A DNA stretch of 64,000 nt, taken from assembly GCF_016026235.1 (NCBI RefSeq), contig NZ_CP065613.1; one strand, given 5' to 3'. Source of the stretch: Escherichia coli (GTDB taxonomy: Bacteria; Pseudomonadota; Gammaproteobacteria; Enterobacterales; Enterobacteriaceae). The notes below the pieces were generated by a model. That model did no database searches. It saw nothing but the letters and a program-made list of their open reading frames with translations, and had not been told where the DNA came from. Positions within the stretch are counted from its first letter, which is position 1. Each line of letters opens with the position of its first letter. Shown in pieces: positions 21,720-49,818 of this stretch. Both the position numbers and the translations under genes were made by a program.

Positions 21720-21830
21720 TTTTTATTCGGGCGGATAAGGCGTTTTCGCCGCATCCGCCGCTCTGTACACAATGCCTGATGCGACGCTGGCGCGTCTTAT
21801 CATGCCTACAAACCACACCGCACATTTCAA
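21720..21830. repeat. REP/BIME element downstream of proX
   Basis: gcggataaggcg...cgccgcatccgcc and gcctgatgcgacgctggcgcgtcttatcatgcctac palindromic units. Confidence 0.8.
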
Positions 21831-29663: not shown

Positions 29664-29735
29664 GAAAGACGCGCATTTGTTATCATCATCCCTGAATTCA
29701 GAGATGAAATTTTGGCCACTCACGAGTGGCCTTTT
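29664..29735 (+). ncRNA. micA: MicA (SraD) Hfq-dependent small RNA
   Basis: gaaagacgcgcatttgttatcatcatccctgaattcagagatgaaattttggccactcacgagtggccttttt matches the MicA sequence as I recall it, including its terminator hairpin; lies between luxS and gshA. Confidence 0.9.
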
Positions 29736-32465: not shown

Positions 32466-32542
32466 TGGTGCATCCGGGAGGATTCGAACCTCCGACCGCT
32501 CGGTTCGTAGCCGAGTACTCTATCCAGCTGAGCTACGGATGC
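32466..32542 (-). tRNA. tRNA-Arg (anticodon ACG)
   Basis: Reverse complement GCATCCGTAGCTCAGCTGGATAGAGTACTCGGCTACGAACCGAGCGGTCGGAGGTTCGAATCCTCCCGGATGCACCA. Confidence 0.95.
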
Positions 32543-32740
32543 ATCGGGAAAATTTATTTTACTGCTGATATTGATATCGCTACTAAAGCCATATCAAGTA
32601 AGAGATGGTGCATCCGAGAGGATTACTCGCCTTGCGGCTCGCCCTTCGGGCCGTTGCTGGCGCAACGTTATCCTCCCTGGTGCCTGCGGTTAATTCCGCT
32701 ACCTCTTCGATATCTTCATTGCTGAAGATTTCGGAGAATA

Positions 32741-32817
32741 TGGTGCATCCGGGAGGATTCGAACCTCCGACCGCTCGGTTCGTAGCCGAGTACTCTATCC
32801 AGCTGAGCTACGGATGC
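32741..32817 (-). tRNA. tRNA-Arg (anticodon ACG)
   Basis: Identical 77-nt tRNA-Arg sequence. Confidence 0.95.
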
Positions 32818-33016
32818 ATCGGGAAACTTACTTTACTGCAGATTTTTTGATACCGCTACTAAAGCCGTATCAAGTAAGAGATGGTGCATCCGGGAGGATT
32901 ACTCGCCTTGCGGCTCGCCCTTCGGGCCGTTGCTAAAGCAACGTTATCCTCCCTAGTGCCTACGGTTAGTACCGCCACCTCTTCCATACCTTCATCGCTG
33001 AAAGTTACGGAGAATA

Positions 33017-33093
33017 TGGTGCATCCGGGAGGATTCGAACCTCCGACCGCTCGGTTCGTAGCCGAGTACTCTATCCAGCTGAGCTACGGATGC
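33017..33093 (-). tRNA. tRNA-Arg (anticodon ACG)
   Basis: Identical 77-nt tRNA-Arg sequence. Confidence 0.95.
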
Positions 33094-33096
33094 AAA

Positions 33097-33189
33097 TGGC
33101 GGTGAGGCGGGGATTCGAACCCCGGATGCAGCTTTTGACCGCATACTCCCTTAGCAGGGGAGCGCCTTCAGCCTCTCGGCCACCTCACC
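33097..33189 (-). tRNA. serV: tRNA-Ser (anticodon GCU)
   Basis: Reverse complement GGTGAGGTGGCCGAGAGGCTGAAGGCGCTCCCCTGCTAAGGGAGTATGCGGTCAAAAGCTGCATCCGGGGTTCGAATCCCCGCCTCACCGCCA with long variable arm. Confidence 0.95.
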
Positions 33190-47020: not shown

Positions 47021-48460
47021 ATGTCTATTGTGGTGAAAAATAACATTCATTGGGTGGGTCAACGTGACTGGGAAGTACGAGATTTTCACGGCACGGAATA
47101 TAAAACGCTGCGCGGCAGCAGCTACAACAGCTACCTCATCCGCGAAGAAAAAAACGTGCTGATCGACACCGTCGACCATAAATTCAGCCGCGAATTTGTG
47201 CAGAACCTGCGTAATGAAATCGATCTGGCGGATATCGATTACATCGTGATTAACCATGCAGAAGAGGACCACGCTGGGGCGCTGACCGAACTGATGGCGC
47301 AAATTCCCGATACGCCGATCTACTGTACTGCCAACGCTATCGACTCGATAAATGGTCATCACCATCATCCGGAGTGGAATTTTAATGTGGTGAAAACTGG
47401 CGACACGCTGGATATCGGCAACGGCAAACAGCTCATTTTTGTCGAAACACCAATGCTGCACTGGCCGGACAGCATGATGACTTACCTGACAGGCGACGCG
47501 GTGCTGTTCAGTAACGATGCTTTCGGTCAGCACTACTGCGACGAGCATCTGTTCAACGATGAAGTGGATCAGACGGAGCTTTTCGAGCAGTGCCAGCGTT
47601 ACTACGCCAATATCCTGACGCCGTTCAGCCGCCTGGTAACGCCGAAAATTACCGAGATCCTGGGCTTTAACTTACCAGTCGATATGATAGCGACCTCCCA
47701 CGGCGTGGTCTGGCGCGATAACCCGACGCAAATTGTCGAGCTGTACCTGAAGTGGGCCGCTGATTATCAGGAAGACAGAATCACCATTTTCTACGACACC
47801 ATGTCGAATAACACCCGCATGATGGCTGACGCTATCGCCCAGGGGATTGCGGAAACCGACCCACGCGTGGCGGTGAAAATTTTCAACGTCGCCCGAAGCG
47901 ATAAAAACGAAATCCTGACCAATGTCTTCCGCTCAAAAGGCGTGCTGGTCGGCACTTCGACGATGAATAACGTGATGATGCCGAAAATCGCCGGGCTGGT
48001 TGAGGAGATGACCGGATTACGCTTCCGTAACAAACGCGCCAGTGCTTTCGGCTCTCACGGCTGGAGCGGCGGTGCGGTGGATCGTCTTTCCACGCGCCTG
48101 CAGGATGCGGGTTTCGAAATGTCGCTTAGCCTGAAAGCGAAATGGCGACCAGACCAGGACGCTCTGGAGTTATGCCGTGAACACGGTCGCGAAATCGCCC
48201 GTCAGTGGGCGCTCGCGCCGCTGCCGCAGAGCACGGTGAATACGGTAGTTAAAGAAGAAACCTCTGCCACCACGACGGATGACCTCGGCCCACGGATGCA
48301 GTGCAGCGTCTGCCAGTGGATTTACGATCCGGCAAAAGGCGAGCCAATGCAGGACGTTGCGCCAGGAACGCCGTGGAGTGAAGTCCCGGATAACTTCCTC
48401 TGCCCGGAATGCTCCCTCGGCAAAGACGTCTTTGAAGAACTGGCATCGGAGGCAAAATGA
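47021..48460 (+). CDS. norV: Flavorubredoxin, anaerobic nitric oxide reductase
   Basis: 479-aa ORF with C-terminal rubredoxin CxxC...CPxC motifs. Confidence 0.95.
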
Positions 48461-49590
48461 GTAACGGCATTGTGATCATTGGTTCGGGCTTCGCCGCCCG
48501 CCAACTAGTGAAAAATATTCGCAAACAGGACGCCAGTATTCCATTAACCCTGATTGCCGCCGACAGCATGGATGAGTACAACAAACCTGACCTCAGCCAT
48601 GTTATCAGTCAGGGGCAACGTGCCGACGACCTTACCCGCCAGACGGCAGGTGAATTTGCCGAGCAGTTTAATCTGCGCCTGTTTCCGCAAACCTGGGTGA
48701 CGGATATCGATGCAGAAGCCCATGTAGTAAAAAGCCAGAATAATCAGTGGCGATACGACAAGCTAGTGCTGGCAACCGGTGCCAGCGCCTTTGTCCCGCC
48801 AGTGCCTGGGCGTGAGTTAATGCTGACATTAAATAGTCAGCAAGAGTATCGCGCCTGTGAAACGCAACTGCGGGATGCACGACGCGTGTTGATTGTTGGC
48901 GGTGGTTTGATTGGTAGCGAACTGGCGATGGATTTTTGTCGTGCAGGCAAAATGGTTACGCTAATCGACAACGCTACCAGTATTCTGGCGTCGTTAATGC
49001 CACCGGAAGTAAGCAGTCGCTTGCAGCATCGGTTGACGGAGATGGGCGTTCATCTGCTGTTGAAATCTCAGTTGCAGGGGCTGGAAAAAACGGATTCTGG
49101 CATTCTGGCAACGCTGGACCGCCAGCGTAGTATCGAAGTGGATGCGGTAATTGCCGCCACCGGACTGCGCCCGGAAACCGCCCTGGCACGACGTGCCGGG
49201 CTGACGATTAATCGCGGCGTTTGCGTCGATAGTTATCTGCAAACCAGTAATGCCGATATTTACGCGCTGGGCGATTGCGCGGAAATTAACAGTCAGGTAT
49301 TGCCGTTCCTGCAGCCGATTCAACTTAGCGGGATGGTGCTGGCAAAAAATCTTCTCGGCAATAACACACCGCTGAAACTACCGGCGATGCTGGTGAAAAT
49401 CAAAACGCCGGAATTACCGCTGCATCTGGCAGGCGAAACCCAGCGTCAGGATTTACGCTGGCAGATTAATACCGAACGCCAGGGAATGGTGGCGCGCGGC
49501 GTTGACGATGCTGACCAGCTTCGCGCCTTTGTGGTCAGTGAGGATCGGATGAAAGAGGCATTTGGATTGTTGAAAACGTTGCCGGTGTAG
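48457..49590 (+). CDS. norW: NADH:flavorubredoxin oxidoreductase
   Basis: 377-aa ORF overlapping norV by 4 bp; FAD/NAD glycine motifs. Confidence 0.95.
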
Positions 49591-49810
49591 GTGGGCTACT
49601 GTGCCTAAAATGTCGGATGCGACGCTGGCGCGTCTTATCCGACCTACGGGGAGCGCATGTGTTGGTCACATAATGCGTTCATGTCACATACAGCTACTGT
49701 GCCCAAAATGTCGGATGCGACGCTGGCGCGTCTTATCCGACCTACGGGGACGCATGTGTAGGCCGGATAAGGCGTTTATGCCGCATCCGGCAATAATGGT
49801 GTTCAGATGC
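49591..49810. repeat. Tandem ~98-bp direct repeat with REP palindromes between convergent norW and hypF
   Basis: ctactgtgcc(t/c)aaaatgtcggatgcgacgctggcgcgtcttatccgacctacgggga occurs twice (near 49596 and 49693), followed by gccggataaggcgtttatgccgcatccggc. Confidence 0.8.
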
Positions 49811-49818
49811 AACACGTT

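Follow-up and report, generated by a model that had tools for sequence, protein, structure and literature searches.

The spacer between norW and hypF in the window, the 64,000-nucleotide stretch of Escherichia coli DNA analysed here, is with high probability filled by a two-unit REP array of the BIME-2 type lying between two convergent transcription units, norVW and hydN-hypF; this degree of confidence is meant for the explanation as a whole, including the origin of the allele and the function proposed for it. The array is real and ordinary, being an element of a known kind with a known behaviour, namely BIME-2 with strain-variable copy number. Our result matters mainly for annotation, as it replaces the "tandem duplication" of the first-pass annotation with a standard BIME-2 array at a site of known type. 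What is slightly unusual is only that all internal y REPs are long dead while units are still being amplified and deleted.

Repeat structure and REP assignment

The spacer (49591-49818) is 228 bp long and, as had been noted before, lies between two convergent genes, norW (+) and hypF (-), whose stops bound it. The genes were identified through homologous E. coli stretches annotated as NADH:flavorubredoxin reductase NorW and homologous loci annotated as carbamoyltransferase HypF, and the gene order is gutQ, norR (-), norV and norW (+), then hypF, hydN and ascG (-). The last codons and stop of hypF overlap a sequence with weak similarity to a z2 REP, CAGATGCAACACGTTTTATCCGTTC, within 49803-49828. 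Three open reading frames of 34, 43 and 44 amino acids overlap the array; small frames of this sort inside the internal unit would be deleted or changed in the one-unit alleles carried by approximately 47% of strains.

A direct-repeat search matched 49595-49652 to 49693-49750 at 57 of 58 positions with a period of 98 bp, while the continuation of the repeat (49649-49694 against 49746-49791) was only 74% identical. Global alignment of the full 98-nt units gave 86 matches in 99 columns (87%), a single nucleotide being inserted or deleted. When up to one mismatch was allowed, no direct repeat in the 1-kb neighbourhood was longer than this 58-nt match; in 100 shuffles the longest averaged 11.2 nt and never exceeded 15 nt. 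The repeat is real and far above chance, and it withstands the realignment that had been proposed as a means of refuting it; its near-identity is limited to about 60% of the unit. The earlier description of a ~98-bp tandem duplication was thus accurate in period and place, but the near-identity that it implied holds for the first 58 nt only and falls to 87% for whole units. Tandem Repeats Finder did not report the repeat pair at the norW-hypF locus; the pair amounts to only about 1.6 high-identity copies.

Table 1. Elements of the norW-hypF spacer and the flanking genes, in window coordinates
Feature	Sequence	Position	Strand	Basis or remark
norW CDS		48457..49590	+	ORF list; stop TAG 49588-49590
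l-like head-to-head linker, copy 1	TACTGTGCCTAAAA	49597..49610		in 58-nt repeat; aligns to l linker of naRNA4 Y-l-Z2 model
z2-like REP number 1	TGTCGGATGCGACGCTGGCGCGTCTTATCCGACCTAC (plus-strand letters)	49611..49647	-	exact core match; aligns to Z2 hairpin of naRNA4
short tail-to-tail linker number 1, 13 nt	GGGGAGCGCATGT	49648..49660		one G more than unit 2
decayed y-REP remnant, unit 1	GTTGGTCACATAATGCGTTCATGTCACATACAGC	49661..49694	+	74% identity to intact unit-2 y REP; GTAG changed to GTTG, hairpin lost
l-like head-to-head linker, copy 2	TACTGTGCCCAAAA	49695..49708		direct repeat and naRNA4 alignment
z2-like REP number 2, same sequence as number 1	TGTCGGATGCGACGCTGGCGCGTCTTATCCGACCTAC	49709..49745	-	repeat, core match, fold, naRNA4 alignment
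short tail-to-tail linker number 2, 12 nt	GGGGACGCATGT	49746..49757		unit decomposition
intact y REP	GTAGGCCGGATAAGGCGTTTATGCCGCATCCGGC	49758..49791	+	one mismatch to y core pattern; GTAG present; aligns to naRNA4 Y
putative tail: l-like sequence, then decayed z2 remnant across hypF stop	AATAATGGTGTT, then CAGATGCAACACGTTTTATCCGTTC	49792..49828		tentative
hypF CDS, 2253 nt		49819..52071	-	ORF list; stop 49819-49821

Each unit (97 or 98 bp) consists of a z2-type REP hairpin, a short linker of 12-13 nt, an inverted y-type REP and an l-like linker (Table 1). The repeated unit is itself a REP/BIME unit, and the duplication is therefore not merely embedded in a REP region as first described. Likewise, the REP palindrome does not come after the copies, as had been said, but forms the right half of copy 2; its counterpart in copy 1 has decayed. 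The reading as a REP cluster showing local duplication was right in kind, the units being BIME units with the four parts named above. The short linker reads GGGGA(G)CGCATGT and is 13 nt long in unit 1 but 12 nt long in unit 2. The inter-unit linker, TACTGTGCC(T/C)AAAA, is partially similar to the naRNA4 l linker, with matches at AC-GUGCC-A-U. The sole substitution within the 58-nt repeat falls in this l-like linker (T at 49606, C at 49704).

The z2-like hairpin of both units folds at -20.8 kcal/mol with one internal stem mismatch; its plus-strand CTAC end is GTAG on the minus strand, and the changes that set its stem base apart from that of the naRNA4 Z2 hairpin are compensatory. At the y position, the fold energy is -3.3 kcal/mol for the unit-1 remnant versus -19.1 kcal/mol for unit 2, and alignment of the remnant to the naRNA4 Y leaves eight pairs non-canonical. 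In the plus-strand RNA fold, the intact y REP pairs with z2 REP number 2 to give one long composite hairpin. Inspection of the decayed y remnant by eye gave no convincing CRP- or FNR-like half-sites. The tail beyond the intact y REP could be aligned to l and Z2 in the naRNA4 model, though several of its pairs are non-canonical and the z2 match is weak. The array may tentatively be extended into hypF, in which case it may have supplied the hypF 3' end; BIME-bearing and REP-free alleles encode different HypF C-termini.

A REP is defined as an imperfect palindrome of 30-40 nt with a conserved GTAG 5' of the stem foot (PMC3333891). Both z2-like elements and the y REP of unit 2 have this form; the unit-1 remnant, with GTTG in place of GTAG and its weak fold, does not. 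These elements also belong to a multi-copy intergenic family, with related copies in the window at 7350-7707, 21730-21802 and 57069-57098 and a median of three places per E. coli genome matching a 501-bp query (window 49450-49950). BIME-2, as described by Ton-Hoang et al., combines y and z2 with a short linker in tandem copies, the number of which varies between strains (PMC3333891). At the norW-hypF locus, y and z2 lie in inverse orientation, fully in unit 2 only as the unit-1 y is decayed, the linker of 12-13 nt is short and too small for an L motif, and tandem copies occur in strain-variable number. An assignment to BIME-1, which has z1 and y in a single copy with a long L linker carrying an IHF site, was rejected on the linker length, the z2 type of the REP and the multi-copy array. 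BIME-2 elements are bound and cleaved by DNA gyrase. A "z1-like" REP within an "atypical BIME" was also considered and rejected, since the naRNA4 consensus and the Y-l-Z2 definition of Qian 2015 show that the long GACGCT.GCGCGTC hairpin is Z2.

A single Y-l-Z2 unit of REP325 constitutes naRNA4 (Qian 2015, PMC4550694), the family model of which (Rfam RF02564) gave three plus-strand matches at the locus with 48.6, 45.6 and 38.5 bits, below the gathering score of 59.5, which other REP pairs in the window exceed (67-73.5 bits). That the locus is a gene for a trans-acting naRNA4-type small RNA working with HU on nucleoid structure is scarcely credible: the sub-threshold matches would speak for it, but at 38-49 bits they express REP-family similarity.

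Several further elements were noted in the window. A canonical y-l-z2 REP pair lies at 21729-21806 (naRNA4, 73.5 bits), and a single y REP lies on the minus strand at 57069-57098. The MicA small RNA gene was found at 29664-29735 (Rfam RF00078, 83.9 bits). A tRNA cluster at 32466-33189 (-) holds three tandem tRNA-Arg(ACG) genes approximately 275 bp apart and a tRNA-Ser(GCT); the serV-argVYZQ cluster of K-12 has four Arg copies, and the cluster may be another copy-number difference from that strain.

Copy number, age and origin of the array

The 501-bp query was matched in 5,425 of 5,426 complete E. coli genomes, and only four records were at least 99% identical to it. Alignment and unit decomposition resolved spacer lengths of 127, ~221-229, 324-326 and 419 bp into one, two, three and four units, respectively. 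One unit (127 bp) is present in K-12 MG1655 and O157:H7. Two units (221-229 bp) are found in the window, AHM8C212RI and 2010C_5028, and, in a more divergent type, in MNCRE44, UTI89 and O170:H18. FDAARGOS_943 and 88-3493 have three units (324-326 bp), FORC_042 and tcmA_3 have four (419 bp), and JNE25-003 and EC6868 carry a REP-free spacer of 77 bp. In a sample of 60 evenly spread rows obtained with a flank-only probe, 28 alleles had one unit, 22 had two, one had three, one had four, seven were REP-free and one was disrupted by insertion sequences. A probe specific for the internal unit (unit 1) matched 899 of the 5,426 genomes, at no more than four places per genome. The comparison between strains that had been suggested as a check thus bore out copy-number polymorphism, with one to four units plus REP-free alleles in E. 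coli. About 13-15% of E. coli have the 77-bp spacer without an intact REP, which together with the range of one to four units indicates that the array is dispensable, or at least not tightly constrained. Spacer length could serve as a small typing marker.

In the REP-free alleles of JNE25-003 and EC6868 (extracts L008/L009, 442-518), a GC hairpin, CCCTCGCCCAAAGGGCGAGGG, that no T-run adjoins is accompanied by a y-REP-like remnant of 17 nt, TTACGCCACATCCGCCA; their HypF C-terminus is four amino acids shorter and different (..AAARILHAA*). Across species, the HypF C-terminal tail after ..AAAR varies widely. In strain DCE7 (NZ_CP090611.1; extract L015, ~2833-5200), IS1397 of the IS3 family lies in the loop of the unit-2 z2 REP (GGATGCGACGCTGG|CTGAACTGCACC), followed in the interrupted array by ISEc21 of the IS110 family. 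The position of IS1397 speaks for the REP identity of the element, and at least one strain has thus also had the spacer used as a landing site by insertion sequences.

The intact y REP was confined to the hypF-proximal unit in all multi-unit alleles analysed (10 E. coli strains, E. albertii and Escherichia sp. E1V33), the y REP of each internal unit being decayed. The z2 hairpins of the various copies mostly lie near -20 kcal/mol, with a few carrying single destabilising changes (-13.5 to -16.9 kcal/mol). In FORC_042, unit 2 is a G-U intermediate and unit 3 has a compensated GATGC/GCATC stem.

For the outgroups, species-representative genomes were covered by one DNA-pattern scan anchored on a conserved HypF C-terminal motif, and the spacers were then extracted. 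E. albertii has a 320-bp spacer of three units, in which the internal y REPs show the decay described above, and Escherichia sp. E1V33 also has three, its internal y REPs being decayed in the same way. The divergent "E. coli" representative SCPM-O-B-8794 has one unit, and B2-type E. coli have two, with the decayed internal y REP in common with E. albertii. A decayed internal y REP common to E. coli, E. albertii and Escherichia sp. E1V33 indicates that the array and the loss of its internal y REPs predate the split of E. coli and E. albertii. The one-unit alleles are most simply explained as derived. This polarity follows from the outgroup arrays and not from the T at 49606, which K-12 shares: that base was discarded as proof of a deletion origin for the K-12 single unit, as it lies in the norW-proximal head, which any allele keeps.

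The window allele can be compared directly with the three-unit allele of FDAARGOS_943, to which it is 100% identical over 400 nt of flanks. Unit 1 of the window consists of the left half of FDAARGOS_943 unit 1 (loop variant GCTGGCGCG) and the right half of its unit 2 (remnant variant GTCACATACAGC). From this pattern, the two-unit allele looks like a deletion recombinant from three units to two, which one crossover between units 1 and 2 of a FDAARGOS_943-like array would produce exactly. The reverse route, a duplication followed by several parallel substitutions, would be less parsimonious.

Array length changes in whole units, from one to four across E. coli. Units are probably gained and lost when the 58-nt direct repeats recombine unequally or when replication slips between them. 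Alternatively, TnpA(REP) might act on the intact z2 REPs, since the GTAG and the stem mismatch that it requires (PMC3333891) are present on the minus-strand z2 REPs, though not on the internal y remnants. Whole units are still gained and lost although the internal y REPs died before E. coli and E. albertii separated, which suggests that a change in copy number here needs no intact REP pairs.

Transcript ends and competing explanations

Compared with shuffled sequence, both strands of the spacer form much more stable folds (z-scores of -4.4 and -5.25). A scan of both strands of 49591-49818 found no hairpin followed by a T-run, that is, no intrinsic terminator. In Citrobacter, the corresponding spacer is unrelated, approximately 110 bp long, and ends in GCCCCGCCAGTCCCGGGGC followed by a T-run, as seen in Citrobacter braakii; the scan classed it as terminator-like on the norW-sense strand. 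In Citrobacter species (loci L016-L039), a classic terminator of a hairpin and T-run adjoins the hypF stop (extract L026, 2408-2436), and several of them have different REP pairs of their own adjoining norW.

The REP325 array has been described as a partly Rho-dependent terminator and mRNA stabiliser, and in genome-wide data a REP between convergent genes goes along with higher expression of the two (bioRxiv 10.64898/2026.03.23.713779). By analogy, the hairpins of the norW-hypF array, if transcribed, would sit in both 3' UTRs and block 3'-to-5' exonucleases. They would also attenuate read-through, partly via Rho, and such attenuation would insulate norVW and hydN-hypF from each other, replacing the hairpin-plus-T-run terminator of Citrobacter. 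Protection of 3' ends combined with partly Rho-dependent attenuation of both convergent transcripts is a plausible role for the array, and the most likely one. A search of papers and supplements for literature specific to the norW-hypF REP found nothing relevant. The natural series of zero, one, two, three and four units between convergent operons could be used to test the effect of REP dosage on 3'-end stability and read-through.

The main rival is that the array is neutral or selfish REP-derived DNA with no host role, tolerated at this site and drifting in copy number; we regard this as unlikely, though it deserves serious weight. It would accommodate both the REP-free alleles and the variation in unit number elsewhere, and the internal y remnant differs from that of E. 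albertii at 3 of 36 positions, compared with approximately 5 of 120 (implied by the alignment score) for the coding end of norW, with no sign of constraint. However, most z2 hairpins have stayed near the fold energy of the window copies, and FORC_042 carries a compensatory stem change. The array also occupies the position of the terminator of its relatives, where no other terminator-like structure is present, and the published genome-wide data tie REPs between convergent genes to higher expression.

A stronger functional claim would be that the number of intact z2 hairpins (one to four), with the ancient and conserved loss of the internal y hairpins, forms a strand-asymmetric 3'-UTR element tunable by copy number. 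This is improbable; if true, the element would set lineage-specific expression of norVW, which serves nitric oxide detoxification, or of hypF, which serves hydrogenase maturation, and would be a natural dial instead of neutral drift.

A bidirectional terminator had been proposed for this region; that it is a canonical Rho-independent one common to norVW and hydN-hypF is very improbable. Strong GC-rich hairpins do lie between convergent genes, and 78 REPs figure in a published, sequence-based set of bidirectional terminators, but no hairpin on either strand of the spacer is followed by a T-run, and the orthologous Citrobacter spacer has such a site and shows its expected appearance. In its intrinsic sense, the proposal is not upheld.

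It is also very improbable that a 98-bp segment was recently duplicated in this strain and by chance fell in a REP region. The single difference between the left 58 nt of the copies and the scarcity of near-identical records would fit such an event; the right halves, in contrast, are far less alike, and the chimeric unit 1, built from two internal units of three-unit alleles, points to deletion. The same two-part structure with the decayed y REP recurs in B2-type E. coli, E. albertii and Escherichia sp. E1V33, and arrays of two to four units sharing it are spread across E. coli phylogroups, so that the "local duplication" is neither recent nor strain-specific.

Comparison with known systems

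The two-unit BIME-2 array favoured here has its closest described counterpart in REP325, the BIME-2 array between yjdM and yjdN. In both, inverted y and z2 REPs alternate in tandem units of strain-variable number, the tail-to-tail linker is short, and the head-to-head linker of the norW-hypF array bears a partial likeness to the l linker of REP325. They differ in that the norW-hypF unit is 97-98 bp long whereas that of REP325 is 77 bp plus spacer, and in the base of the z2 stem, which at norW-hypF is the compensated variant GTCGGAT..ATCCGAC instead of GCCTGAT..ATCAGGC.

In published BIME-2 arrays, the tandem copies are described as well conserved within a locus (PMC3333891). In the norW-hypF array, by contrast, the internal y REPs have all decayed and have neither GTAG nor a hairpin, so that the last unit contains the only complete REP pair. 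The window itself offers the same contrast, as its second BIME array, at 7350-7707, has kept its REPs intact. That array has four tandem units of 89-90 nt with 78-98% identity to the first, and three of them reach the naRNA4 gathering score with 67-72 bits.

Unit 2 also resembles a REPIN, the REP doublet mobilised by RAYT (TnpA_REP), as its inverted REP pair, when single-stranded, folds into one long hairpin, and GTAG is present on both strands. Unlike a REPIN, the array occupies a fixed orthologous locus across Escherichia species, and its internal units have lost one of the two REPs. Finally, the Rho-independent terminator of Citrobacter lies at the same genomic position and presumably performs an equivalent task at the norW 3' end; in the Escherichia array, where no hairpin is followed by a T-run, termination would need factor-assisted attenuation of the REP type.
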